Of a stretch of DNA of 64,000 nucleotides, positions 17,787 through 29,924 are shown piece by piece; the stretch's first letter is position 1; each line of letters opens with the position of its first letter. The position numbers and the translations under genes are program-made. Under the pieces are notes generated by a model. It was not told the DNA's origin. It did no database searches and saw only the letters and a list, made by a program, of their open reading frames with translations. The DNA comes from Desulfurivibrionaceae bacterium (lineage in GTDB: Bacteria; Desulfobacterota; Desulfobulbia; Desulfobulbales; UBA5123): NCBI GenBank assembly GCA_030145325.1, contig JAQYVW010000002.1, positions 5,619 through 69,618 of the forward strand. Direction: 5' to 3'.

Positions 17787-18251
17787 TTAGGCTAGTTCGG
17801 CATATTGGCCGGTGGTCTGGCGCAGTTTCATACTGAGGCTTTTGGTGAGACCCTTGATAAATTTCAGGCCGAGGTGCGGATTTTCCGCGCAGATTGAATC
17901 CAGGCGGTTCTTGGTGAGGAGCAGGAGTTCGGATGGTTTGGCGGTAATAACGGTTGCCGAACGGGGAAAGTCATCAATGAGGGCCATTTCACCGGCACAT
18001 GCTCCTCGTCCTAGGGTGGCGACGATGATTTGTTTAAAGTCTGGTCCTTCAAGGCGAACTTCGACCTCGCCATCGACAACGAAGAAAAGAAAACTCCCAT
18101 GTTCTTCTTTCTGCACGATGATGGCTTTTTCTGGAAAGCTGCGCAGGCTCATCTGTTTGGCGAAGAAGTCAATTTCATCCGTGTCAAAATCTTCAAAAAA
18201 AGGGTTTTCACGAAGGATGTGTTCAATTCTTTCATACACGGCAGTCACCAA
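17787..18251 (-). CDS. Stand-alone cyclic-nucleotide-binding (CAP-effector type) domain protein, 154 aa
   Basis: FFVVDGEVEVRLEG...LGRGACAGEMALIDDFPRSATVITAKPSELLLL is the canonical cNMP-binding beta-roll and phosphate-binding cassette. No DNA-binding or other output domain is present. Confidence 0.85.
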   Translation of the reverse strand: MVTAVYERIEHILRENPFFEDFDTDEIDFFAKQMSLRSFPEKAIIVQKEEHGSFLFFVVDGEVEVRLEGPDFKQIIVATLGRGACAGEMALIDDFPRSATVITAKPSELLLLTKNRLDSICAENPHLGLKFIKGLTKSLSMKLRQTTGQYAELA

Positions 18252-18292
18252 TTAGAAGTGTTTCAGGGCAAAAAGGCATTTCTTGTTTCTGG

Positions 18293-20335
18293 TCAGGTAA
18301 GTGAGTAAATCCTGTGCAAGCCTGTGATCCCTTTTAGCTCAAAAAGGCCCACCAGTTTGATCTGCGGCCCCTGCATCTGTTGAATCTCCTTGAACACGTT
18401 TTCTGAAACGAGAATCCGATTGTCGGAAGGAACCTCTTCGGCAGTCATGCCGCCTTCCAAGGGGATCAGCCCTTCGGCTTTGACCCCTTCCACCCGGAAG
18501 GTCATACTCACCGCCACGCCAAGGCGGTCGCCCTGATCATCTACCTTTGCCTCGCCAAAATGGATGGCAAAGCGCAGGTTGATTCGTTCTCGCTCCTGGG
18601 CTTTGGCGTTGTGGTTAGCCACAGTAACCAGGGTGTTCTGGGCAAAGCGAACCGCATTGGCCGCATCGGGAAAGGTCATCAGGAAGCCGTCACCGGTGCC
18701 TTTGCTGAAGCGACATTTCTCCTGGCGGGCGATGGGGGAGACCATGTCGGTGAGGTTCTTGATCAGGTTCAGGGAAAAGGTGTCGCCGTATCGGTTGGCG
18801 ATGTCGGTGGAGTTGCAGAGGTCGAGCACCAAAATGGCTTCAGTTACCGAGGTGCCAGCGGCGATTTGTTTTGAAACCACCCGCCTGGTGTCGCCGCCCT
18901 GGCTCTGATCTTCATCCGGGTTGGCGGTGAATTGGCGACCGGTAAGTTCTTTAAGGGTTTCCACAGCCTGAGCGGAGACCTCTTGATCTTGGTCAGAGAG
19001 GCATTGTTTGATCGCATCAGTGGCGTTTTTGTTTTTCATCAGGCCAAGGGCTTTGATGGTATCTATCTTCAGTCGCTTGGAGTTTACACTAAGGAAGCGG
19101 GTTAGATGGGCAAGGGCGCCATCTCCGCCGATTTTGGCCAGGGCTTCTGGTACCCCGCGGCCCATTTCCCGGTCGTCGATGAGCTTCGCAATGGGATCAA
19201 TGGCTCGTTCGTCCTTTAGTTTCCCTAAGGCGCGGAGGGCTTTTTCCCTAACCCACCAATCTTCGTCAGCCAGTCTTTCCACCAAGGCGTCGAAGGCCAG
19301 GGGGTCAACGACATTGTTAAAGAATTCCACTGCGCAGCGGCGCAGGTTCTCGTCGGGATCACGGGTTAGGGAAATAAACCCTCTGGTGATATTGTTGTCA
19401 CCGTGCAAGGCGGTGAGGGAGCTGGTGGCGATTTGGCGAACCCACCAGTCGGAGTCCTTCAGCGCCAGCATCAACTCTTCACTGGTGTTGGGATCTTTGA
19501 GGTTCTTTAAAACCTCAATGGCGCAACGGCGGATATTGACATCCGGGTTGCGCATCAGTTCGATAACCTGGGGGACTATTTTCGCATCAGCGATATGGAT
19601 CAAGCAGTCGGTGGCGCGTTGCCGTACCAGCAGGTCGTCGTCGGTGAGTAGAGCAAGCATTTTGTTTGAGGCGCTCTTGTCGCCAATGGCGTCCAAAGCA
19701 TCCATGGCCAGCATCTTCATCTGTGGATCTTTTTCGTCAAGTTTCTCCAGCAGAGGGGGGACGCTTTCCGGCGCTTTCAGGATCCCGAGGCATTTGACGG
19801 CGGCATGACGAACCTGCCAACTGTTGTCGTTAAGGGCGCTCATGGCCAGTTTGGTGCCGGTGGTGCCGCCGATGCGCCCGATTACCTTGATAATGCAGCG
19901 TTTTGTTTCCGGGGTGGCGCTGTTAAAGAGACCAATAAGGTCGGGAATACATGATTGTGACTTGAAGGTGCTGAGGAGTTCGGTGGCGTTGGTTCTGGTG
20001 TAGGTGTCGGAGCTTTTGAGCGCTTCAACCAGAAACGGGGTTGATGATTTGCTCCATTTATCGATGATGATGGTTTTGGCGACTCTCCGCACTTCGTCGT
20101 ACGGGTCACCCAGGAGTGAAATGATTTCTTCCTGTGACTCATCGTCGCAGATTTTAGCCAAGAGAAACTGTGCTTTACCGGAAGGGAGTTTTTTTTGTTG
20201 AAAGGCCTCAATGGCTGCGCGTACCGCAGCATGGCCGATCTCCTTGAGGTCGGCGACAATGGCAGTATCCTGCTGGGGAGTTTCTGCCGCAGCATACTTG
20301 TTGAGGAGTTTTTTTATCTTGAAACCGGTGAACAC
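18293..20335 (-). CDS. HEAT-repeat protein fused to a C-terminal class III nucleotidyl cyclase domain (680 aa)
   Basis: More than 10 PBS-lyase/HEAT-like repeats are present (DPYDEVRRVAKTI, NDNSWQVRHAAVKCLG, DSDWWVRQIATSSL, DEDWWVREKALRALG, DQDQEVSAQAVETL). The cyclase core follows: AILVLDLCNSTDIANRYGD...SKGTGDGFLMTF...RFAIHFGEAKVDDQGDRLGVAVSMTFRVEG. Confidence 0.8.
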   Translation of the reverse strand: MFTGFKIKKLLNKYAAAETPQQDTAIVADLKEIGHAAVRAAIEAFQQKKLPSGKAQFLLAKICDDESQEEIISLLGDPYDEVRRVAKTIIIDKWSKSSTPFLVEALKSSDTYTRTNATELLSTFKSQSCIPDLIGLFNSATPETKRCIIKVIGRIGGTTGTKLAMSALNDNSWQVRHAAVKCLGILKAPESVPPLLEKLDEKDPQMKMLAMDALDAIGDKSASNKMLALLTDDDLLVRQRATDCLIHIADAKIVPQVIELMRNPDVNIRRCAIEVLKNLKDPNTSEELMLALKDSDWWVRQIATSSLTALHGDNNITRGFISLTRDPDENLRRCAVEFFNNVVDPLAFDALVERLADEDWWVREKALRALGKLKDERAIDPIAKLIDDREMGRGVPEALAKIGGDGALAHLTRFLSVNSKRLKIDTIKALGLMKNKNATDAIKQCLSDQDQEVSAQAVETLKELTGRQFTANPDEDQSQGGDTRRVVSKQIAAGTSVTEAILVLDLCNSTDIANRYGDTFSLNLIKNLTDMVSPIARQEKCRFSKGTGDGFLMTFPDAANAVRFAQNTLVTVANHNAKAQERERINLRFAIHFGEAKVDDQGDRLGVAVSMTFRVEGVKAEGLIPLEGGMTAEEVPSDNRILVSENVFKEIQQMQGPQIKLVGLFELKGITGLHRIYSLT

Positions 20336-20732: not shown

Positions 20733-22235
20733 CTAGGGAATGGGAGGAATAACTTGGTTCGGTATCTGTTCAGCGGTTGGTTTCTGTAGAGCATTTTTGA
20801 TGGCAATGGGCATGGTTTCGCCTTCCATCGCCATCTCGCGCATTTGTTTAGCAAGATAAGAATTATTGACCAGGAGTTTGAAGACCTGGGTCATGAATTC
20901 CTGTTTCCATGGACTAAGCTGGTCGAGGTTTTGAAACTTGTGCATAAAAAAAGTCTTGGCGGCGTGGCCCAGTTCTTTTTCCAGTTCTTTAAGGGTCATG
21001 GCCTCAGGCTTCAACACCGGCTCCACCAGATTGTATTTCCGGTAATCTGTCACGGCCACATATTTTTTTAAGGTTGGGTACAGATCGGCATAGGGCCAAG
21101 GAGCGATGGCGAGAAAGAAGGCCATGTCCGGGTTATAGTGGATGGCGAGAGCAACGATAGCGGCGATGGACTCCGGGGTGTCGTCCGGCATGCCTAAGAC
21201 AAAAGAGGTTTCAGAGACGATGTTGGCGTTGTTGATGATGTCGATGGCCCGCTTGGATTGTTCGACCTTGGTGCCTTTCTTGAAAAGGTTCAGGTTTTTC
21301 TGGGAACCGGCCTCAACCCCGACGTAGATATGTTCGATACCGGCCTGGCGGTATTTATCCATGATATCCTCATCGCGGAGGATATCGTCAACCCTGGTTT
21401 CCAGGAGGAGTTTTACCCCTGTTTGCCTTTCAATGAGCAGATCCAGAATATTTTCCCAGCGGTTGCGATCCAGGGTGGGGATCTCATCGGCGAGCATGGC
21501 GACGTTGACCCCGTATTGTTGATTTAGGTGTTCAAGTTCAGCCACGAAGTTTTCCGGGCTTCGTGCTCGCCAGGAGCGTTTCCAGAAGAGTTGTTGGGAG
21601 CAGAAGGAGCAGTTTTGCTTGCAACCACGAGAAGAAGAGACAATGGCCAGGGTGGAGTTCTTTTTCGGGCGGTAAGAGTAAATGGGCCATTCCACCAGAT
21701 CCCAGGCGGTGGGCAAAGCGTCAAGATCGGCGATGAAAGGGGCGTCAGCCGTAACCTGAATCTTATTGTTAACGCGAAAGGCGATTCCCGCGACCTTGCT
21801 GGGATCGTCATTATCGTTAAGACAATCAAGTAGGGTGGGGAGGGTAATCTCTCCCTCGCCTCGCACCACAAAATCAATGGGATTATCTTTAGCGCTGAGC
21901 AGCTCGTCATAACAGAAGGTGGCATGGACATTACCGATCACGGTAACCATGCGGGGATTGATCTCCTTGGCCAGTCGCAGTAGTTCCACCCCATCGACAA
22001 TGGAGGGGGTAAAGGCAGTGGTCGCTACCACCTCTGGAGCAAAATCTTCAATGCGTTGGCGGATCTCTGGCCATTGATGCCAGAGGGACATGGCGTCGTA
22101 GTAATCCACCTCATAGCCAGCCTCGCGCAAGGCTCCGGCGATATAGACAAAGCCTAAGTTCAGCCAGGTTCCGGCAGATTCCACCACGCCGGAGTGGTAG
22201 GGGGGGGTGATAAGGGCGACACGTTTCAGTTTCAT
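20733..22235 (-). CDS. Cobalamin (B12)-binding domain radical SAM enzyme
   Basis: The N-terminal B12-binding Rossmann region is RVALITPPYHS...LGFVYIAGALREAGYEVDYYDA. The radical SAM cluster motif is SSRGCKQNCSFCSQ. It is 500 aa. Confidence 0.85.
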   Translation of the reverse strand: MKLKRVALITPPYHSGVVESAGTWLNLGFVYIAGALREAGYEVDYYDAMSLWHQWPEIRQRIEDFAPEVVATTAFTPSIVDGVELLRLAKEINPRMVTVIGNVHATFCYDELLSAKDNPIDFVVRGEGEITLPTLLDCLNDNDDPSKVAGIAFRVNNKIQVTADAPFIADLDALPTAWDLVEWPIYSYRPKKNSTLAIVSSSRGCKQNCSFCSQQLFWKRSWRARSPENFVAELEHLNQQYGVNVAMLADEIPTLDRNRWENILDLLIERQTGVKLLLETRVDDILRDEDIMDKYRQAGIEHIYVGVEAGSQKNLNLFKKGTKVEQSKRAIDIINNANIVSETSFVLGMPDDTPESIAAIVALAIHYNPDMAFFLAIAPWPYADLYPTLKKYVAVTDYRKYNLVEPVLKPEAMTLKELEKELGHAAKTFFMHKFQNLDQLSPWKQEFMTQVFKLLVNNSYLAKQMREMAMEGETMPIAIKNALQKPTAEQIPNQVIPPIP

Positions 22236-22237
22236 GA

Positions 22238-22591
22238 TTACAAAGTCCAGAGAACAGCAAACACGCTACCGACGATAAAGGCGGTGCCGAGAAAGGCGTG
22301 CTTGACGATCAGGATCGGTTTTTTAAGTTTGCCTGGCTCTTCCATCTTGTCCCAGTCGCGCCGGTAGAGAAACCGAACCAGGCCGGTGAGCATGATTAAT
22401 ACCAGGGCCGCGTTGCCGAGCCAAAAGAATTGGTTCTGGAGTTCGCTGGCAAAGGTTGCCAAGGCCGGTGGCACTTCTGTCAGCCCGTTTACTTGGCGGT
22501 GGCAGGTGTAGAGGCCGATAAAACTTCCGAACCAGATCCCGGTAAAAAGATCGTGGGCAAAGTTGTTGATGAGGTAGAGCCAAGATTTCAT
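22238..22591 (-). CDS. Small integral membrane protein (3-4 TM), unknown function
   Basis: Hydrophobic segments FTGIWFGSFIGLY, FFWLGNAALVLIMLTGLV and AFLGTAFIVGSVFAVLW. Its ATG overlaps the upstream stop (ATGA at 22588-22591), and its stop lies 2 nt from the B12-rSAM start. Confidence 0.55.
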   Translation of the reverse strand: MKSWLYLINNFAHDLFTGIWFGSFIGLYTCHRQVNGLTEVPPALATFASELQNQFFWLGNAALVLIMLTGLVRFLYRRDWDKMEEPGKLKKPILIVKHAFLGTAFIVGSVFAVLWTL

Positions 22592-22788
22592 TTACGATCT
22601 TTACCGCCGTGATTTTCAGGTGTCCGCAGCCGCAACAGGGTTTGCCGCAGTGATTTCTTATGGTTGTCGTTAGCGGTGGATTTTTGTAGCAATTGGGCGA
22701 TCCGCACCGAGCAGCTACAGACCTTCTCATCTTTGCCGATGAGTTCGTCGTTGATTTTTGGTGCTTTCCAAAAGCTGAAGAAACTCAT
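22588..22788 (-). CDS. 66-aa ORF, translationally coupled on both sides (possible small protein or peptide)
   Basis: MSFFSFWKAPKINDELIGKDEKVCSCSVRIAQLLQKSTANDNHKKSLRQTLLRLRTPENHGGKDRK. It has 4-nt ATGA overlaps at both ends (22785-22788 and 22588-22591). No family is recognised, and an opposite-strand ORF (22693-22893) overlaps it. Confidence 0.4.
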   Translation of the reverse strand: MSFFSFWKAPKINDELIGKDEKVCSCSVRIAQLLQKSTANDNHKKSLRQTLLRLRTPENHGGKDRK

Positions 22789-24026
22789 TTCTTGCTCAGT
22801 GATTTTGTAAGTTTAGCGTGCAAACGGCCAAGTTTCTTGAGATTTCTTTTGAGGAGGAAGTCGATCATCTGGTTCATTAGCTTACCGCCATGACTGCCCC
22901 TGATCTCTTCTGCATCAAGTTTTCCTGGTCGTTTCTGCCAACGACCGACGATCTCAAAACCGTCCTCGGTCTCAAAGCCCAGGTTGTCGGTCTGTACCGC
23001 CACCACCATGCTGCGGTTGACCAGATCGTAATGCTTGAGCAGTCCCACCTCTCCAGGCGGTAGCCGCGTAAAGGTGTCCACATCAACCACCTGGGTGCGG
23101 GTCCAAGGCGGGATGATTTTGTGGCGACTGCTCTGGCGTCCGGCCAGATGATCAGCCAGGGTGCTGTCAAAGAAGTTGGTGCTGACCTCCCCCATGCCGA
23201 GAACATTGATGCAGTAAGGTTCTTCGATGCCAAGGATTTCGTGGCACATCTCAAAATACTCTTCCTTGGAGCACTCACCGAACTGGCCCATATAGCCGCC
23301 GCCGTCGCAGATCCTGCTCCCCAGGGGCAGTTTAAAGCTGATCTTATCCCGAGCACAGGCCTTGAAGAAAAAGATAAAGCCTGGCGTGCTGCCGATCAAG
23401 GCCAGGGGAGCGCCGGTTGCTTCCGCATCCAGTAATGATTGTACCATGAGTTCAAGATTCAAGCCGCCAAATGAGATCAGATAATCGCTGTCCGGGGTGC
23501 CGAACTGGGTGCGCACCCGATCAAGCCCCACCGCCATGCCGATGCCGGGGGCCATTTGCGGTGATGGAGTCATCAGCAGGATCTTCATCCGTTCCTGGTC
23601 GGGAAAGACATATTTTCGGGTTAATAAACCGTTGGCGGCGTGAATTAATTTCACTGCTGCTGGGTCACGGTAGATCTGGCCCTTTTTTAGGGGATTGGTG
23701 GTGCCGCTGGTAAAATAGGCGTGTTCGGCTTTTTCCACCGGAAAGGAGGCCAGGACAAAATCTTTGAAGGCTTTTGACGGCACCGCCGGGATCTCCTGCC
23801 ACTTCTTTGCCGCAGCTGGGGAAACGCCTTTGTGCTGGCAATACTCCCGATAGGGGGGGATGGTGTGAAACTGGAGTTCAAACTGGGCGAGGGCGATGCG
23901 ATTGAACTCTTCCTCATCGTCATAAGCTAACCCTTTATCGATAAAAGCGAGGATGGCTTGATCGAGTTCGGCGACAAAATCTGAGTTCAGAGCATATTGG
24001 ATGGGCGGCGCCGATTTGAAAAACAT
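22785..24026 (-). CDS. LuxE-like acyl-protein synthetase / adenylate-forming enzyme
   Basis: FELQFHTIPPYREYCQHKGV...WQEIPAVPSKAFKDF...AYFTSGTTNPLKKGQIYRD matches my recollection of the LuxE family N-terminal half, including the modified SSGTTG-type AMP-binding loop. The assignment is by motif only. Confidence 0.6.
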   Translation of the reverse strand: MFFKSAPPIQYALNSDFVAELDQAILAFIDKGLAYDDEEEFNRIALAQFELQFHTIPPYREYCQHKGVSPAAAKKWQEIPAVPSKAFKDFVLASFPVEKAEHAYFTSGTTNPLKKGQIYRDPAAVKLIHAANGLLTRKYVFPDQERMKILLMTPSPQMAPGIGMAVGLDRVRTQFGTPDSDYLISFGGLNLELMVQSLLDAEATGAPLALIGSTPGFIFFFKACARDKISFKLPLGSRICDGGGYMGQFGECSKEEYFEMCHEILGIEEPYCINVLGMGEVSTNFFDSTLADHLAGRQSSRHKIIPPWTRTQVVDVDTFTRLPPGEVGLLKHYDLVNRSMVVAVQTDNLGFETEDGFEIVGRWQKRPGKLDAEEIRGSHGGKLMNQMIDFLLKRNLKKLGRLHAKLTKSLSKK

Positions 24027-24076
24027 TTTGTTACCTATAGGTGGTTTGTGGGTGCTGTTCGCGGTGAGCGTGGGGT

Positions 24077-24553
24077 TTAGAGCTTTGTTTTCTTAAGCCA
24101 GCCGAGGGGCAATATCTCGGGGGTATTTTTTTTATACAAGATATAATCTGTGTCGAATTTTGTCATCAAATAGCGGTCTTCCTTTTTGATTAATATCTTA
24201 AATATAATGTACATTACTAAAGGGGTGGTGAAACTGAGCAATGAATTTGCCCAGAAAGATAGCCCTGGGACAATAAAACAGATCCAGGCTGAATAAATTG
24301 GGTGCCGACAGAGGGCAAAGGCCCCCGAGGTACAGAGTTTGTCGGCATTGTAGGCCTTCAGCATGAAGATGACGCCGGTAATATAGAGGACAATGCCCAT
24401 CGCGATAAAGGCGGCGCCGATGGTGATGCGGAGATCCTTAGAGATTACGGGCAGGCGAAGGAAGGGCGAGAAATAGATGGCAAGGGCCACTGTGGAGACA
24501 AAATAGCTTATTGAGAGGGACGCTAGGGTTGGCCCGATTCCCGTTCGGCTCAA
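24077..24553 (-). CDS. Membrane methyltransferase of the ICMT/PEMT-like family
   Basis: A polytopic 158-aa protein with GAFALCRHPIYSAWICFIVPGLSF, which fits the RHPxY motif of isoprenylcysteine carboxyl and phospholipid methyltransferases. Confidence 0.65.
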   Translation of the reverse strand: MSRTGIGPTLASLSISYFVSTVALAIYFSPFLRLPVISKDLRITIGAAFIAMGIVLYITGVIFMLKAYNADKLCTSGAFALCRHPIYSAWICFIVPGLSFWANSLLSFTTPLVMYIIFKILIKKEDRYLMTKFDTDYILYKKNTPEILPLGWLKKTKL

Positions 24554-25083
24554 TTTTTTGCCCCCCCCTGTGGGTGGTTGGGGGGGCGTTGGAAGATAAA
24601 ACTTGAATCCTTGCTTTCTTTAGTTTTCTGGATGGATATGTCTGCCACCAGCCATTTGTCGGTGGTGTGGGAGAGGGTGTAAGTGAGGCTGTAATGCACC
24701 GTGTTGGCAAAAAGGCGTTTGCCGCTCTTGATCTCCCAATAGACATATTCCCACTCCTCTTCTGCGGCAATGGTGACTGTGTTGGGGGTAATCTCCTGGA
24801 GTGGAGCGAAGGTGATCTCTTGCAGTTTTGAGTCCATCTTTAAGCCTGCTTCACCAGTGGCGGCCATCTGGTAATAAGCCTTTTCGGCCATTTGGGCTGT
24901 GGCGACTTGGGCAAGGGAATTCATTTTGAGGTTTCGGTACCCGTCGGCGAGGAGGGCGTCGTACCAGGTGACGGCGGCCTCAACCGCTGCCTGTCTGCTG
25001 TGGGCGGCGGGCTGTGGCTGGCGGTCGCAACCGGTAATCGCCAGCAGCAGGCAAATGGTCAGAAGAGATAAAAAAGTTTTCAT
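24550..25083 (-). CDS. Lipoprotein of unknown function
   Basis: Lipobox in MKTFLSLLTICLLLAITGCDRQ. ATGA overlaps are present with ccsA upstream (25080-25083) and the methyltransferase downstream (24550-24553). Confidence 0.65.
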   Translation of the reverse strand: MKTFLSLLTICLLLAITGCDRQPQPAAHSRQAAVEAAVTWYDALLADGYRNLKMNSLAQVATAQMAEKAYYQMAATGEAGLKMDSKLQEITFAPLQEITPNTVTIAAEEEWEYVYWEIKSGKRLFANTVHYSLTYTLSHTTDKWLVADISIQKTKESKDSSFIFQRPPNHPQGGAKN

Positions 25084-25907
25084 CGGAAGTATTCCGAGTG
25101 AATTGACGAATCAAACAGCGGCACAAAAAATAATGACGCCATGGAAAGCAGGAAACAGATGATGAGCAGGGCGGCCGCTTTTTCTTCTTTGAGGCCGAAG
25201 AAGCGGCGCAGGTGCAAATAGATAGCAAAGCCGCCCCAGGTGATCAGTGACCATGTTTCAATGGGATCCCAGCCCCAGAACCTACCCCAGGATTGATAGG
25301 CCCAGACCGCGCCGGTGAGCATGGCGATGGACCAGAACACAAAGCCAAAGCCGGTAAAGCGGTAGGCGAGCAGATCCATGGCGGCAGGTTCGGGAAGGCG
25401 CGCCAGCCATGAGTAACTGGTTCTTTTTCTTTGGATATAGCCAAGGGAAAGGGCCAGGGCGATGATGATGGTTGCCAGCGAGATCATGTAAAAGATTACA
25501 TGCAGTACCAGCCAGATGCCCCGGAAGGTGGGGGGCAACGCTTTCACCGCCGGGTTAAAGAAGATGCCGAGTCCAATCATTAGCACCACCGCCGGAAAGA
25601 CCAGCAGGCTGGCCGGGCGGATGGCTGGAAAGGGTTTGCTGAAGAGCAGGAAGGTCAGCATCGTCCCCCAGGCCATTGCCGAAAGGATTTCATAGCGGGC
25701 CAAATATGGTCCATGGCCCACCACGTACCACCAAAAAAGGAGCGCGCTGCTATGGATAATTAGGCCGGTGATAACCAGCCGGTAGGCAAGCCGTTCGGTC
25801 TGTTCCTTCTGGAAAATGATCCCCATGGTATTGCCGACAGTGGCAACCACATAGAGAAGCACTGCTGACCAGTGCATACCGGTGAGGATGGTGAAATCGT
25901 TGTTCAT
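25080..25907 (-). CDS. ccsA: Cytochrome c biogenesis protein CcsA/ResC (System II heme handling)
   Basis: Trp-rich heme-handling motif WGRFWGWDPIETWSLITW and 8 TM-like segments. The start is moved to the ATG at 25907 (MNNDFTILTGMHW), which overlaps the ResB stop as ATGA. The 76-aa upstream extension in the track ORF lies inside resB. Confidence 0.85.
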   Translation of the reverse strand: MNNDFTILTGMHWSAVLLYVVATVGNTMGIIFQKEQTERLAYRLVITGLIIHSSALLFWWYVVGHGPYLARYEILSAMAWGTMLTFLLFSKPFPAIRPASLLVFPAVVLMIGLGIFFNPAVKALPPTFRGIWLVLHVIFYMISLATIIIALALSLGYIQRKRTSYSWLARLPEPAAMDLLAYRFTGFGFVFWSIAMLTGAVWAYQSWGRFWGWDPIETWSLITWGGFAIYLHLRRFFGLKEEKAAALLIICFLLSMASLFFVPLFDSSIHSEYFR

Positions 25908-27268
25908 GGGTTTTTCAATCCTTGTAGGCGCTGGCGCACCGAACAGTATTCTTCCAGGTAGTGATCGCGAAACCTGGGACATTTCCACCGTAAGCGGTAG
26001 CCACCATCCCTCTTTTGACAATACAACTCTCGGGGGATTGTAAAATAGTAGAGCAGGGCGCCCAAGGAGAAAATAAAAATGCCCCAGAAAATGCCGGGCA
26101 TGCCGGTTTTTTCCCAGAAAATAAACCCGGTCCATTGGGTAACCCCCATGAGTTTTACAGCATAGGGGCCAAGGTCGCCATGTTCTCCTTTGGTAAGGGA
26201 AAGTTCGTCGATGAGTTGGTTGTTAGCGAACAGGCGCACAACCAGCAAAGGATTGTTGCTGGCCAGGTTTGTTTTAGCCGCGTCGGCATAGGATTTTGCT
26301 TTGAGATGATAGGGGATTTCCTGAAAATCAAAGTTCCCGTAGCTTGCTTTGGTGAGTGAGGTCGGGCTTTCCATGTCCAGAATTAATTCGCCGGTTATCC
26401 CCGTGCGGTCGGTGAGTAGGAGATGGAAATTGTTGCCGAAGGTTTTTTCTTGATAGATCCGCAAGCCCTGGTGTTGCAGGATGGATCCGGTGGTGGTGGT
26501 CAGGGGGGCGGCCTGGCCGTTTGGAGAAATGAAGATCAGGTTGCTGGTGATGCTTTTGACCCCACCTTTGTTCCAGAATTCAGGGGTAAATTGTTCCAGG
26601 CGGACGGCAGCAGGCAGTCGGAACGATGGGGCTAAGAGGCCATGATCTTCATAAAGCCAGGGGCTGTTGGGGGTATGTGTTTCTCCTTCGGTGAGGCGCA
26701 GCACACCTTCTTTTTGGGTGGCAACCAAGAGTAGGGCTCCAGCAATGGTGATTAGGATGCCAAGGTGGAGGAGGGTAAGCCCCCAGTAGCCCCAAGGATG
26801 TTTTACATATCGGTTGCCGCCATCTGTGTCGGCAAGTTTCCAATAACCAGCCCTTTTGAGGGTGGAGTGTAACGCTGCCGCTGAGATCTGTGCTTCAAAG
26901 TGATCAGCGGTGGGGCTGAGTTGGTTGGTAGGTGGCGGCATGGGGGCGGAAATGGAGAACATTTTTTTATAGGCGTGGCGAAATTGGTCATAGGTGGTGA
27001 TGGTCAGAGAGAGCAGAAAGATAAAGAGGAGGGCGGCAAACCATGGCGCGGTAAACAGTCGGGCAAGATCAAATCGTTGGATGATTGGCAGCCAGGTTGG
27101 GTGTGCCTGTTGCCAGAGGGTTAACTGTGCCGGAGGGGTGCTGAATTCCTGAGGAATAAAGATGGAGAGGGCAACGGAGGAAAGCAGTAGCAAGAGGAGG
27201 GCAAAAACTGTTTTCGGGGAGGTGAGAATATGTTTGAGATGGAATCGCATACGATGGGGGCGGGTCAC
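25904..27268 (-). CDS. ccsB: Cytochrome c biogenesis protein CcsB/ResB
   Basis: LKHILTSPKTVFALLLLLLSSVALSIFIPQEF is a ResB-type N-terminus. A large periplasmic loop and C-terminal TM helices follow. It lies immediately upstream of ccsA. Confidence 0.85.
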   Translation of the reverse strand: MTRPHRMRFHLKHILTSPKTVFALLLLLLSSVALSIFIPQEFSTPPAQLTLWQQAHPTWLPIIQRFDLARLFTAPWFAALLFIFLLSLTITTYDQFRHAYKKMFSISAPMPPPTNQLSPTADHFEAQISAAALHSTLKRAGYWKLADTDGGNRYVKHPWGYWGLTLLHLGILITIAGALLLVATQKEGVLRLTEGETHTPNSPWLYEDHGLLAPSFRLPAAVRLEQFTPEFWNKGGVKSITSNLIFISPNGQAAPLTTTTGSILQHQGLRIYQEKTFGNNFHLLLTDRTGITGELILDMESPTSLTKASYGNFDFQEIPYHLKAKSYADAAKTNLASNNPLLVVRLFANNQLIDELSLTKGEHGDLGPYAVKLMGVTQWTGFIFWEKTGMPGIFWGIFIFSLGALLYYFTIPRELYCQKRDGGYRLRWKCPRFRDHYLEEYCSVRQRLQGLKNP

Positions 27269-27332
27269 CGGGAGGCGTGGAAAGTTTTTATCGGGAGAGT
27301 GGTGGGTGGGCCAAGCCGGTTAAGTTTACTTG

Positions 27333-28820
27333 TTACCACGATTCACCGGTGATGTCTGGACCGTGAGCACTTGTGCCGTCGCATTCTCCGGCGGTAGAGT
27401 AGCAATTACCCTTGGAGTAGTCTGTTGCGTCTGTTTTTATGAACTTTCTTACCTTGGGAGCAGTTGCGGCATCGGTGTTGTCCCCTGCTCCATCAGACGT
27501 GTAGCGGTCTGGCATGGTATAAGTGTCGCTGTTGTCGGCGGCAATCAGCCGCGAGACTCTTCCCCCATGGGGGATCCTGATGTGGCAATCCACACAGGCG
27601 GTACCCGAGTGGTTAGTTTGGTCATGGGCATCGTTGATGACTGGGCTGGTGGGGACGTCGTTGGGGTGGCAATTCCTACAAAAGGTGCCTTGACTGGTGT
27701 TAATGTCCAGATCCATATCTCCCAGCGTTCTGTAGGTGCCGGTTTCCTGGCGACCATTTTTGCCCTTGTCACAATAGGGCCAAGCCTTGTTGGTGCCGGC
27801 CAGCATCCATTTTACCGCTGAGCCGTGTGGTCCGGCCAGGCCGGAATCACTTTCGTGACAGTCGGTGCAGTACATGGTTTGGGTGCCGACGTCGACGTTC
27901 CAGGGCGCGATCAGTTGAGCGGGGTTCAGCGCGCTGGAACCGGAAACTCCACCGCTGAGTCCAGAAACGACAGGGTGGAAAGATTTGTTGTAGGGGTTGA
28001 ATTCCATGCCGACGTCGGTCCAGGCCATGGCTGGGTCGGCGGGGTCACCCCAGCTTTCCACACTGATGTTTGCTTTGGTGTGGCACTTGAAGCAGATCTG
28101 GTATTCCTTGGTGGCCGTTTGCATGGCACTGTAAGGATCACCATAGTCGATGTTGTCGTTACCCCAATTGCTATCTATGCCCGTATAGTTGGCTTCGATG
28201 CCGGTGGCCTTGTACAGCGGGCTGGTGGTGGCAATGGCGTTGGTATGGGTGGTGACGGAGGTTATGGGGTCGAGAATTTGGGTTCCGTCGTGGGTATGAT
28301 GTAAGGTTGTTCCTGCGGCATGGGGGTTATGGCAATCGGTACATTCAATATGTTTGTCATCTTTGATATCTGTAATGGTTTCGTGAGCTCGATGGGCTGT
28401 ATCGCTGAGATAGACGTTGTGTCTGCCGCCTGTTTTGTCAATATCGGTCTTGATATCATCCGGGGCGCCTGCTGAGGCAGAGGAGTCATTGCCGCCATTG
28501 CCGTGGCATTCTAGACAGAAATCTTGTTCGGGATCCATGCCCAGATAGTTGTCCGGGCCCCCTGTGGGACTAGGTTCACTGCCCCCGACACTGGCATGCT
28601 GCTCATGACAATGGGCGCAATTGCCGACGTTGTAATCTTGGCCACCGGTGGCAGAGGTGCGAGTGTTTAAGTCGGAACGGCTAACGCCGTCGGTGGCGCT
28701 ACCATGTGCTGATACGGTATAGGTGCCAGCCGTGCAGTTTGCCGGTTGCCAAAGGGTAAAGGCTGCAACCAGGCCAAAGGTAACAGTGAGCAGGGTGGAT
28801 GTGAAGCGGGCTGTGTTCAT
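27333..28820 (-). CDS. Secreted multiheme c-type cytochrome (7 CXXCH motifs)
   Basis: The start is set at the ATG at 28820 (MNTARFTSTLLTVTFGLVAAFTLW, a signal peptide). Heme motifs are CAHCH, CLECH, CTDCH, CFKCH, CTDCH, CRNCH and CVDCH. Confidence 0.85.
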   Translation of the reverse strand: MNTARFTSTLLTVTFGLVAAFTLWQPANCTAGTYTVSAHGSATDGVSRSDLNTRTSATGGQDYNVGNCAHCHEQHASVGGSEPSPTGGPDNYLGMDPEQDFCLECHGNGGNDSSASAGAPDDIKTDIDKTGGRHNVYLSDTAHRAHETITDIKDDKHIECTDCHNPHAAGTTLHHTHDGTQILDPITSVTTHTNAIATTSPLYKATGIEANYTGIDSNWGNDNIDYGDPYSAMQTATKEYQICFKCHTKANISVESWGDPADPAMAWTDVGMEFNPYNKSFHPVVSGLSGGVSGSSALNPAQLIAPWNVDVGTQTMYCTDCHESDSGLAGPHGSAVKWMLAGTNKAWPYCDKGKNGRQETGTYRTLGDMDLDINTSQGTFCRNCHPNDVPTSPVINDAHDQTNHSGTACVDCHIRIPHGGRVSRLIAADNSDTYTMPDRYTSDGAGDNTDAATAPKVRKFIKTDATDYSKGNCYSTAGECDGTSAHGPDITGESW

Positions 28821-28982
28821 CTGGTCATCCTGTACGGCTGATGGTGGCGGCAATAGAAAACCGTCAATACTGACAATGATAACATATATTTTGTTATTCG
28901 TGCAAAAGCAACCTGCATTGTTTTGGCACCAATGGTCTGGCGGTCAGTGGCTATAAGGGGGGGAGGGGAATTGCGTTCAGCG

Positions 28983-29279
28983 TTAGTCTAAGCTAACAAA
29001 TTGATCAGCGCTGGTTCGTCGGTAGAGGCCGATGATGTCGATATCAGCTTTGTGTAGTAATGCCTGGATCGACTCTGTTTCGGCACAGGGGAATTCCAGA
29101 GCCATACCGCAGGAAGAGCCGATTGCACGGGGGATGGGGGATAGTTCGTAGGATATTTTTTGTTCTTTGAGCAGCTTTTCTGCCTTGAGAACAAAGTGAA
29201 TGGAGAAGAGCACTGCATAGCAGCGTTCTCCCGAGTCTTTGGGGGGCATTTTCATTGGCATCTGCATGGGCCGGCCCAA
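28983..29279 (-). CDS. DUF3343-like small protein (usual partner of YedF)
   Basis: YAVLFSIHFVLKAEKLLKEQKISYELSPIPRAIGSSCGMALEF fits the DUF3343 pattern. The true start is probably one of the internal Met codons at 29249-29267. Confidence 0.55.
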   Translation of the reverse strand: MGRPMQMPMKMPPKDSGERCYAVLFSIHFVLKAEKLLKEQKISYELSPIPRAIGSSCGMALEFPCAETESIQALLHKADIDIIGLYRRTSADQFVSLD

Positions 29280-29309
29280 ACAAGGTTTATTTGGGCAATG
29301 AGCAGTTGG

Positions 29310-29924
29310 TTAGCAAGGGTTGACCGTTCTGGTTGCCTGCGCCATGGCTTCGACAATATTGTACATGTTGGTCATGTCTCCAACCCGCAGTTCTTTTTTT
29401 TGATTGTAAAAGTCGAGGCAGGTGCCGCAAGAGAGTATTTCCACCCCCTTGTTGGCCAGTTCTTGGAGCGGTTCGATGAGGTTGGAGTCTCCGGTGGCGA
29501 GGCGCACGCCGCTGTTGTAAAGCAAGATTTTTTGCGGGAGGGGGGAAACTTCGCCAATGGTTTTGATAAAGGCCTGCATCAAAATGCGGCCCAGGGCCTC
29601 GTCGCCGTGGCCAAGGGTGTCGGACGGAATGACATAGACAAGTTCAAGGGTCGGCAACTCGCAGGCGTAGTCCTCGGGGGTAAAGGGGGCGGCAACTTTC
29701 TCTTCATCGCCCTTGGTGATCTGCAAACGGAAGGTGTCGCCCACGGATTGGATCTTCACCGTACAGTCGCGGTTTTTGGCAAATCGTTCCACGTTGTGTT
29801 TGCATTCGCCGTTGTCAACGATTACCAACACCGTATCGCCGGTGGCCAATGTTTCCAAAGCGTTCTTGGTATGAACCACCGGTTCCGGGCACAGCATGCC
29901 CGTGCAGTCGAGAATCTGTTTCAT
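29310..29924 (-). CDS. yedF: YedF-type sulfurtransferase-like selenium metabolism protein (TusA/SirA-like N-domain plus DsrE-like C-domain)
   Basis: The N-terminal LDCTGMLCPEPVVHTKNAL carries the CPxP motif of the TusA fold. The C-terminal half has a DsrE-like layout (ILLYNSGVRLA...LSCGTCLDFY). Confidence 0.7.
   Translation of the reverse strand: MKQILDCTGMLCPEPVVHTKNALETLATGDTVLVIVDNGECKHNVERFAKNRDCTVKIQSVGDTFRLQITKGDEEKVAAPFTPEDYACELPTLELVYVIPSDTLGHGDEALGRILMQAFIKTIGEVSPLPQKILLYNSGVRLATGDSNLIEPLQELANKGVEILSCGTCLDFYNQKKELRVGDMTNMYNIVEAMAQATRTVNPC

Follow-up and report, generated by a model that had tools for sequence, protein, structure and literature searches.

We describe a nine-gene unit of a Desulfurivibrionaceae bacterium (GenBank assembly GCA_030145325.1), located at positions 20733-28820 of a stretch of 64,000 nucleotides of contig JAQYVW010000002.1 (the window; all positions refer to it). 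It contains a heptaheme c-type cytochrome and its own pair of System II cytochrome c synthase genes (ResB and CcsA, together CcsBA), along with a cobalamin (B12)-binding radical S-adenosylmethionine (SAM) enzyme from a clade sister to BchE, a LuxE-family adenylate-forming enzyme, a small peptide with an invariant Cys and a CopD-like membrane protein. The neighbourhood of ResB-CcsA, membrane protein, BchE-like and LuxE-like genes is conserved near multiheme cytochromes in several phyla, and in Thermincola the radical SAM and LuxE-like enzymes are fused in a single protein. It is very likely that these accessory genes act in the same process as the cytochrome c synthase. Our favoured explanation is a heme-directed modification or activation on the cytoplasmic side of a specialised System II synthase, and we hold it tentatively, at a little under even confidence. 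What is new is System II maturation with an undescribed enzymatic accessory set.

Conservation of the neighbourhood

The surroundings of these genes were compared from two anchors. A genome scan with the LuxE-like protein gave 80 loci, 45 of them non-redundant and with at least 5 kb on each flank, and a metagenome scan with the radical SAM enzyme also gave 80 loci, 28 of them with full flanks. Neighbours were counted within 7 kb by using non-overlapping open reading frames (ORFs) and tblastn, plain ORF clustering being noisy (shadow ORFs in GC-rich loci). The LuxE-anchored loci span Desulfobulbia, Nitrospirota/Thermodesulfovibrio, Geobacter, Geomonas, Geotalea, Thermincola, other Bacillota, Coriobacteriia, Anaeromyxobacteraceae and Thermosulfurimonas, and the CcsA-linked loci of the two anchors taken together come from Desulfobulbaceae, Geobacter, Nitrospirota, Thermincola, Coriobacteriia and Thermosulfuriphilus.

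Around the LuxE anchor (n = 45) 39 loci had a CcsA paralog, 29 the small membrane protein and 28 a radical SAM enzyme of the BchE-like type (40% identity or more). Homologs of the heptaheme cytochrome were present in 13 loci, the lipoprotein was present in three and the methyltransferase in one. Five of the six loci free of CcsA have ORFs with 17 to 34 hemes within 10 kb. A sequence-only reading of the window had tied the genes downstream of ccsA functionally to the cytochrome and Ccs genes, and the same module standing elsewhere without them would speak against that link. Actually, 44 of the 45 loci have either CcsA at 7 kb or less or an ORF with at least 17 CxxCH motifs at 10 kb or less, which supports it. 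Around the radical SAM anchor (n = 28) 22 loci had CcsA, and 24 had CcsA or an ORF with at least four hemes. ResB was found in 15 of the 28 and a gene of the LuxE family in 13, and none had the methyltransferase. When neighbouring ORFs were clustered without bias, the top families were CcsA, the B12-radical SAM enzyme, ResB, the small membrane protein and the heptaheme cytochrome. The repetition of one neighbourhood in dozens of independent loci puts this arrangement far beyond chance.

Several layouts were found. The order ResB-CcsA-small membrane protein-radical SAM, without a LuxE gene, is common (L090, L097-L099). Thermosulfuriphilus ammonigenes and Dissulfurirhabdus thermomarina have a compact cluster of seven genes (cytochrome-ResB-CcsA-membrane protein-radical SAM-LuxE-small peptide), and in Geotalea daltonii FRC-32 (CP001390.1, about 3.68-3.70 Mb) the full set, in the order ResB-CcsA-second radical SAM-LuxE-membrane protein-radical SAM, comes after a cytochrome of 1527 aa. 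The pair formed by membrane protein and radical SAM enzyme sits in Geobacter sulfurreducens between giant cytochromes and NHL-repeat proteins. These data support a recurrent core of ResB, CcsA, CopD-like membrane protein and BchE-sister radical SAM enzyme beside multiheme cytochromes, with the LuxE-like enzyme and the Cys peptide as a frequent add-on, to which a degenerate LuxE paralog and another, remotely related B12-radical SAM enzyme are sometimes joined; the patchy lipoprotein and the ICMT-like methyltransferase would be lineage-specific additions. The proposal that the five downstream genes form one module needs correction, as they are not a single evolutionary unit: the small membrane protein and the radical SAM enzyme are conserved with ResB-CcsA, while the methyltransferase is found only in the nearest relatives.

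The locus of Thermincola potens JR (L174; CP002028.1, 1184046-1207063) starts with a cytochrome of at least 10 hemes, a cytochrome of 2110 aa with 58 CxxCH motifs, ResB and CcsA. It continues with the fused radical SAM-LuxE gene, a 91-aa ORF, an NHL-repeat protein and an 11-heme cytochrome, and ends with a second ResB-CcsA pair followed by sirC-like, hemA, hemC and hemD genes. This last pair, beside hemA, hemC and hemD, looks like the housekeeping set, and the presence of two ResB-CcsA sets indicates that the CcsBA linked to the radical SAM enzyme is a second, specialised paralogous set. In loci from metagenome-assembled genomes (MAGs) of T. ferriacetica the fused gene lies among 6-, 14-, 24/34- and 15-heme ORFs. 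A T. ferriacetica MAG also has hemE-, hemH- and hemY-like ORFs, called from N-terminal sequences and not by family search, after a run of CcsA, LuxE and a second radical SAM gene.

Three LuxE-like contigs carry unexpected labels ('Candidatus Iainarchaeum archaeon' for L031, 'Dongiaceae' for L027 and 'Pseudomonadota' for L009). As the genes on them share 59-78% identity with those of Desulfobulbia or Geobacter, the labels are probably binning or classification errors.

A radical SAM enzyme sister to BchE

The sequence-only reading had taken the last gene of the unit for a B12-binding radical SAM enzyme of a generic kind (lipid, cofactor or peptide) and had suggested placing it in a phylogeny with BchE and other families. 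The enzyme class stands: the CxxxCxxC motif (C205-x3-C209-x2-C212) does not vary, nor does most of the radical SAM core, and the N-terminal B12-binding domain is still present, so that by architecture the protein qualifies as a cobalamin-dependent radical SAM enzyme. The generic placement does not, since the protein scores 401.5 bits (E 6e-120) against the BchE equivalog TIGR02026, below its cut-off of 481.35, and only 154 bits against HpnR, the next-best NCBIfam family. Orthologs of three other lineages, among them Thermosulfuriphilus and a Geobacterales-like contig, reach 387-398 bits on TIGR02026.

As true BchE references we used those of Thiodictyon (puhE-bchE-hemN), Roseinatronobacter (ppsR-bchE) and Pseudanabaena, from plasmid-borne photosynthesis clusters; their identity to the window enzyme was 34-39%. 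In a neighbour-joining tree the Ccs-linked enzymes, including the Firmicutes versions, form one monophyletic clade that is sister to BchE, and the window enzyme falls in this clade and not within the BchE of phototrophs. The identity inside the clade is 53-88% across phyla, and 65-88% among Desulfobulbaceae, Geobacter and Nitrospirota. Neither is the genomic context one of (bacterio)chlorophyll synthesis: Ccs and cytochrome genes adjoin the window enzyme, whereas true BchE adjoins puhE/hemN or ppsR. Given the sister relationship, a tetrapyrrole is a better guess for its substrate than a lipid or a peptide. Furthermore, the high identity (65-88%) while the adjacent cytochromes belong to different families, with 7 to 58 hemes, argues for a small-molecule substrate that would be the same in all these organisms.

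A second B12-radical SAM enzyme, only 20-24% identical to the BchE-like one, recurs between the CcsA and LuxE genes in Geobacter, Nitrospirota and Thermincola (L005:7290-8573, L038:11158-12552, L089:5990-7327). Its best NCBIfam matches are the MJ_1487 and ladderane-type families, with 60-80 bits.

The LuxE-like enzyme and the cysteine peptide

The LuxE-like enzyme (LuxE-A) has a sole relative in the PDB, the LuxE chain 7xc6_E, with which the adenylation motifs SGTT..K..RD and GGG align. The alignment stops at residue 335 of 373, short of the LuxE C-terminal region that carries the acylated Cys of LuxE. In its place LuxE-A has a conserved basic, amphipathic C-terminal tail free of Cys, and five other Cys are invariant. 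Against the NCBIfam LuxE equivalog (NF052244) it scores 59 bits, far from the cut-off of 550, and no match to LuxC was found among the other operon genes or the neighbouring genes scanned. The PF04443 match and the adenylation motifs place it in the LuxE family, outside the LuxE equivalog.

The 66-aa ORF that follows had been listed as a gene by the sequence-only reading, and it is a real one. Eight homologs from several phyla could be aligned, sharing the motif KITDELIGxDExxCSCSxRIA, in which I12, G18 and C26 are invariant, and the peptide gene always comes after that of LuxE-A, in other phyla too. The N-terminal half, including the Cys, is the conserved part, the remainder being variable and charged. 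Neither a hydrophobic or transmembrane segment nor a signal sequence is present in LuxE-A, the peptide or the radical SAM enzyme, so these three proteins should be cytoplasmic.

An exhaustive phmmer search returned 271 representative clusters at E <= 1e-30. The top match was a protein of 975 aa with B12-binding and Radical_SAM domains in its N-terminal half and LuxE in its C-terminal half. This fusion is present in two strains of T. ferriacetica and in T. potens JR (975-1005 aa), the radical SAM half being 43% identical to the window radical SAM enzyme and the LuxE half 54% identical to LuxE-A.

In many Nitrospirota and Geobacter loci a second LuxE paralog stands in tandem upstream of the window-type enzyme (e.g., L003:8808-9983 and L005:8805-9983). 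It has lost the SGTT loop and the cysteines of CDGGG..GEC, a loss indicating that it is probably non-catalytic and suggesting a pseudo-enzyme partner. Its gene and the methyltransferase gene are not mutual alternatives, several loci having neither.

The cytochrome and its synthase

The family of the heptaheme cytochrome is conserved beside the same cluster in other phyla, with two common features. G[TA]Y[TS]xSAHG is strictly conserved at the mature N-terminus, directly after the predicted cleavage site of the signal peptide, and a C...C...H pattern is found at the C-terminus, with several members terminating exactly at the conserved His after the Cys pair. This last pattern is not a heme motif because its spacing is variable and it lacks the CH dyad. 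An unusual heme-binding motif as the reason for a dedicated lyase was discarded: CxxCK, Cx3CH and Cx4CH are absent from the 12 cluster cytochromes and the window cytochrome has CxxCH only. A PDB sequence search with the window protein gave no significant match. Its start could alternatively be an upstream TTG at 28853.

By family and gene coupling, ResB and CcsA qualify as a System II cytochrome c synthase pair, of which the heptaheme cytochrome is the presumed substrate. The window CcsA scores 150 bits against the housekeeping equivalog (NCBIfam TIGR03144, cut-off 187.6), by which measure it is a divergent paralog of the housekeeping CcsA. The cluster-linked CcsA proteins of eight loci have the transmembrane His, the WGWDPIETWS motif (in degenerate form WGWDPxExWS), LHL and the C-terminal His invariant. 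With the WWD motif and the His ligands retained, these paralogs should still handle heme.

Membrane-associated proteins of the cluster

The 117-aa protein adjoins the BchE-like gene in most loci. The sequence-only reading had called it just a small membrane protein, a description that is correct and can tentatively be sharpened to CopD-like, as 13 of 17 relatives match Pfam CopD (PF05425), the best E being only 2.5e-6. The window protein itself scores 30 bits on NCBIfam CopD (cut-off 195) and is below the cut-off for DUF4149. Its AlphaFold model (pLDDT, the predicted local distance difference test, 88.6) has three long helices; Foldseek gave nothing at E < 1 in the PDB with this model, and no significant match appeared in a PDB sequence search.

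Homologs of the lipoprotein were found in loci L007, L009, L029, L035 and L071 and in 13 of the 80 metagenome loci. The methyltransferase is marginally above the Pfam gathering cut-offs for both PEMT (29.9 bits against 25) and ICMT (28.8 against 24), and does not match the equivalogs ICMT (37.9 against 160), LmtA (27.9 against 325) or MddA (17.1 against 270). It was found only in the closest relatives (L007, L009, L091), and among full-flank loci in 1 of 45 LuxE-anchored and 0 of 28 radical SAM-anchored ones, and is a lineage-specific addition to the cluster. A role as a BchM analog central to the pathway was for this reason rejected.

Organisation of the proposed operon

Junctions were taken straight from the sequence and domains from Pfam and NCBIfam profile scores compared with their cut-offs (Table 1). 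All nine co-oriented ORFs are where the sequence-only reading had put them, as are the two gaps and the 2-nt junction, and Pfam agrees with its domain calls (heptaheme cytochrome, ResB, CcsA, PEMT/ICMT, LuxE and B12-radical SAM). Its overlaps need one correction, as four are ATGA while the one at the start of the methyltransferase is TTGA.

Table 1 Genes of the proposed operon and junctions between them, in order of transcription
Feature	Positions	Strand	Evidence or description
Heptaheme c-type cytochrome, 495 aa from ATG	27333..28820	-	7 CxxCH; Pfam Paired_CXXCH_1, Cytochrome_C7
Cytochrome to resB	27269-27332	-	64-nt gap
ResB/CcsB-like System II subunit	25904..27268	-	PF05140, 92 bits; four hydrophobic segments
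resB/ccsA	25904-25907	-	ATGA overlap
CcsA paralog, predicted heme-handling WWD subunit	25080..25907	-	PF01578, 117 bits
ccsA/lipoprotein	25080-25083	-	ATGA overlap
Lipoprotein, 177 aa, lipobox LAITGC, semi-conserved accessory	24550..25083	-	No Pfam or NCBIfam match
Lipoprotein/methyltransferase	24550-24553	-	TTGA overlap; methyltransferase start codon TTG
ICMT/PEMT-like membrane methyltransferase, 158 aa, small polytopic	24077..24553	-	PEMT 29.9 bits, ICMT 28.8
Methyltransferase to LuxE-like	24027-24076	-	50-nt gap
LuxE-family adenylate-forming enzyme LuxE-A, 413 aa, predicted cytoplasmic	22785..24026	-	PF04443, 78.7 bits (cut-off 24.9)
LuxE-like/66-aa ORF	22785-22788	-	ATGA overlap
66-aa peptide with invariant Cys, predicted cytoplasmic	22588..22788	-	No transmembrane segment; no Pfam or NCBIfam match
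66-aa ORF/117-aa ORF	22588-22591	-	ATGA overlap
CopD-like membrane protein, 117 aa, radical SAM partner	22238..22591	-	H13, D14, W20, K97, H98 invariant
117-aa ORF to radical SAM	22236-22237	-	2-nt spacer, TAA-tc-ATG
B12-binding radical SAM enzyme, 500 aa, predicted cytoplasmic	20733..22235	-	PF02310 97 bits, PF04055 80 bits, CKQNCSFC

One operon is the best explanation for this tight coupling, as previously proposed, and from the overlaps the genes may, as that reading had it, be expressed stoichiometrically. A consensus scan for an internal promoter or terminator gave five promoter-like sites, below the 7.0 expected from shuffled sequences, and no minus-strand terminator-like site in the 64-nt or the 50-nt gap, so there is no evidence for a break inside the operon. 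Rfam found no match over the whole window (e.g., a cobalamin riboswitch). The nearest database relatives are Desulfobulbaceae MAGs.

Flanking genes on both sides appear unrelated to the operon. Upstream, 162 nt away and on the same strand, window positions 28983-29924 (minus strand) encode a Se/S-carrier-like protein (PF11823) and a TusA-DsrE fusion protein, a sulfur/selenium-trafficking pair, and a PilZ protein and cmk also lie on this side. In Thermosulfuriphilus TusA, Rrf2, cysteine desulfurase and NifU come after the cluster. Downstream, 17787-20335 (minus strand) encodes a protein of 680 aa that consists largely of HEAT repeats and, after it, a cNMP-binding protein, a pair resembling a signalling module. 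Among the other loci, GT-C membrane glycosyltransferases (PMT/PMT_2/YfhO) recur in the clusters (L003:1944-3566, L005:2096-4399, L067:17035-18786, L058:16120-17349), together with PD40 or NHL beta-propeller proteins and TPR proteins; these may serve glycosylation or assembly of the cytochromes.

Proposed function and alternative explanations

In the model that we favour the operon would be a specialised System II unit, in which a heptaheme apocytochrome is provided with its own ResB/CcsA heme exporter-ligase and with an accessory set facing the cytoplasm: the CopD-like three-helix protein as partner of the BchE-sister radical SAM enzyme, the LuxE-family enzyme and the Cys peptide of about 60 aa. 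The lipoprotein and the ICMT-like O-methyltransferase would be two later additions of this lineage. Heme itself would be the target of the accessory enzymes, on the inner side of the membrane, with the LuxE-like enzyme turning a propionate carboxylate into an acyl-adenylate, perhaps handed to the peptide Cys, and the BchE-like enzyme performing radical chemistry on a side chain of the tetrapyrrole; in this lineage only, the methyltransferase would esterify a carboxylate. The dedicated CcsBA would then export the heme and ligate it to the CxxCH sites of the adjacent cytochrome. Here we infer heme as the substrate, the nature of the chemistry and the arrival of the product in the cytochrome. Heme is favoured because the nearest family of the radical SAM enzyme acts on a tetrapyrrole propionate, because this enzyme is nearly constant while the neighbouring cytochromes vary in heme number (7 to 58) and family, and because the partner enzymes are directed to carboxylates (adenylation, O-methylation) and heme has two propionates. 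In addition, heme is exported from the cytoplasm through CcsBA and its ligation is periplasmic; as the enzymes should be cytoplasmic, an action on heme before export is favoured.

A stronger version of this model is that, in anaerobes that reduce metals or cycle sulfur (Geobacter, Thermincola, Desulfobulbaceae and Nitrospirota), a subset of the c-type cytochromes receives a chemically modified heme, exported and attached by a dedicated CcsBA paralog. Within the cytoplasm the radical SAM and LuxE-like enzymes would derivatise a propionate or side chain of heme, in a manner analogous to the isocyclic ring of chlorophyll or the carbocycle of F430. We consider this version unlikely, though not to be neglected.

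Several points weigh against heme as the substrate. A modified heme is not known, from experiment or structure, for any cytochrome of these organisms, and ordinary heme c is, to our knowledge, what the Geobacter cytochrome structures published so far contain. As all motifs of the heptaheme cytochrome are canonical CxxCH, its sequence demands neither a special heme nor a special lyase. A sister relationship with BchE at some 37% identity leaves the substrate of the radical SAM enzyme undecided. The known substrate of LuxE is a fatty acid, and in the distant relatives of LuxE-A (30-38% identity) the fusion partner is a LuxC or Zn-ADH domain, as is classical for a fatty-acid reductase, which fits acyl and not tetrapyrrole chemistry. 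The CopD-like assignment of the 117-aa protein (best E 2.5e-6, without a structural match) is weak, and the membrane protein-radical SAM pair of G. sulfurreducens has no CcsA or LuxE within 10 kb.

The same synteny would also be expected if heme were delivered without being modified, with the radical SAM enzyme and its membrane partner as a chaperone or loader of heme for the paralogous CcsBA and the LuxE-like enzyme and peptide as a transient tether. HemW, a radical SAM protein derived from HemN that delivers heme to respiratory enzymes, is a precedent; the minimal ResB-CcsA-membrane protein-radical SAM layouts contain no other enzyme, and organisms whose cytochromes bear as many as 58 hemes must sustain a large flow of heme. 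On the other hand, the invariant CxxxCxxC, the radical SAM core and the B12 domain are expected of a catalyst, although HemW also keeps its cluster, and an ATP-consuming adenylating enzyme fused to the radical SAM enzyme suggests chemistry over simple binding, so that we regard mere delivery as rather improbable. A slightly lower probability is given to the tailoring of a lipid or quinone, close to what the sequence-only reading had proposed, in which the LuxE-like enzyme would activate a fatty acid, the radical SAM enzyme alter a lipid or quinone and the ICMT/PEMT-like enzyme methylate a head group, the product being a membrane component needed around the electron-transfer machinery. The chemistry of LuxE and its remote reductase-fused relatives agrees with this proposal, as do the basic amphipathic tail of LuxE-A, the membrane partner of the radical SAM enzyme and the secondary matches of the latter to HpnR, HpnJ and ladderane-type models (90-154 bits). 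However, the score on the BchE model is some 250 bits higher than on those for lipid enzymes, and the methyltransferase does not share the conservation of the module. The top neighbours are CcsA, radical SAM, ResB, membrane protein and cytochromes, without any further recurrent gene of lipid synthesis, and the adjacency of ResB-CcsA and radical SAM genes across phyla would be hard to explain.

The target could also be a protein, the radical SAM and LuxE-like enzymes modifying, prior to Sec export, the cytoplasmic apocytochrome (or ResB/CcsA), much as sulfatases are modified by anaerobic sulfatase-maturating enzymes. The module lies beside cytochrome genes in nearly all loci, B12-radical SAM enzymes methylating proteins or peptides exist (models of methylases for ribosomally synthesised and post-translationally modified peptides, RiPPs, score 125-137 bits on the window enzyme) and LuxE is by name an acyl-protein synthetase. 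Yet the radical SAM enzyme keeps 65-88% identity next to cytochromes of unrelated families and different sizes (7, 10, 27-like, 34 and 58 hemes), CxxCH would be the sole feature that they have in common, and the best model is BchE and not a peptide methylase, all of which leaves a protein target a shade less probable than a lipid one. If the 66-aa ORF were instead the precursor of a RiPP-like pathway, modified by the radical SAM and LuxE-like enzymes, a small conserved ORF with an invariant Cys after LuxE-A and the moderate scores on RiPP models would be accounted for. This is very improbable, as the peptide is absent from many loci that have just ResB-CcsA-membrane protein-radical SAM, the conservation of the radical SAM enzyme does not track it, and its conserved part is the N-terminal half with the Cys, followed by a variable and charged rest. 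Besides, genes for a protease, a transporter or leader recognition are missing from the cluster, and neither proteases nor exporters recur across the loci. A heme-directed action before export by CcsBA is thus the explanation that we prefer.

Comparison with known systems

The closest family by a wide margin is BchE, the anaerobic Mg-protoporphyrin IX monomethyl ester cyclase, which shares the architecture of B12-binding and radical SAM domains and has as its substrate a tetrapyrrole in which the propionate carboxylate is masked by methyl esterification. There is a parallel in that enzymes activating or methylating carboxylates adjoin the window enzyme. The differences are that the window enzyme is below the equivalog cut-off, its hosts are non-phototrophs and its neighbours are Ccs and cytochrome genes, not bch/puh. 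LuxE, which belongs to the fatty-acid reductase complex of bacterial luciferase, is the one relative of LuxE-A with a structure (PDB 7xc6), with shared PF04443 and adenylation motifs; unlike it, the window enzyme falls far below the equivalog threshold (59 against 550 bits), lacks a LuxC partner, has a Cys-free basic tail and five other invariant Cys, and belongs to a type that is fused to a B12-radical SAM enzyme in Thermincola.

Dedicated System II lyases are known in Wolinella succinogenes, NrfI for CxxCK and CcsA1 for CX15CH. As here, a paralogous CcsA/CcsBA is encoded beside the multiheme cytochrome that it presumably matures, and the two ResB-CcsA sets of T. potens in one locus are a further likeness. 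The Wolinella lyases, however, are explained by non-standard motifs and need no extra enzymes, whereas here there is only CxxCH and radical SAM, CopD-like and LuxE-like proteins are present. Two further precedents have no sequence relationship with the window proteins and are not linked to CcsBA. HemW, which is HemN-like and without a B12 domain, shows that a radical SAM fold processing tetrapyrroles can be recruited to heme trafficking, and CfbE, a Mur-ligase homolog that uses ATP to close a propionate into the carbocyclic ring of coenzyme F430, that a tetrapyrrole propionate can be activated with ATP. The methyltransferase resembles ICMT and PEMT in being small and polytopic, with Pfam scores just above the cut-offs, and differs from them in its lack of an equivalog match (38 bits against 160) and in being a lineage-specific passenger of the cluster.

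Novelty and implications

No NCBIfam model names the LuxE-like, peptide, membrane protein or lipoprotein families, and their homologs appear in databases as 'hypothetical', 'acyl-protein synthetase' or 'B12-binding radical SAM', or under misnomers such as 'hopanoid C-3 methylase' and 'Mg-protoporphyrin cyclase'. The gene association is not described in NCBIfam, the PDB or the full-text literature searched, most subscription journals lying outside it, and a prior description is possible; the gene set is not mentioned in the Geobacter genome papers, the Thermincola/Carboxydothermus papers on extracellular electron transfer or a 2026 paper on Geobacter cytochromes. The sequence-only reading had been unable to match the combination to a described pathway, and the outcome in these sources was the same. 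System II maturation is not known to need more than CcsBA and thiol-reducing factors. There is a minority chance that the cluster stands for a new category altogether, namely a modified heme c. The hypothesis lends itself to direct tests, as homologs are present in cultured G. sulfurreducens, which is genetically tractable, Geotalea daltonii and T. potens.

A BchE-lineage radical SAM enzyme, a CopD-like protein and an adenylating enzyme are conserved near paralogous CcsBA and the giant multiheme cytochromes of organisms involved in extracellular electron transfer or the sulfur cycle. A missing step of biogenesis or a modified heme would each explain this accessory set, and either would bear on how cells build proteins of 30 to 58 hemes and on why the heterologous expression of such cytochromes often fails. 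A modified heme, if true, would add a cofactor to the known hemes and open another branch in the biogenesis of c-type cytochromes.

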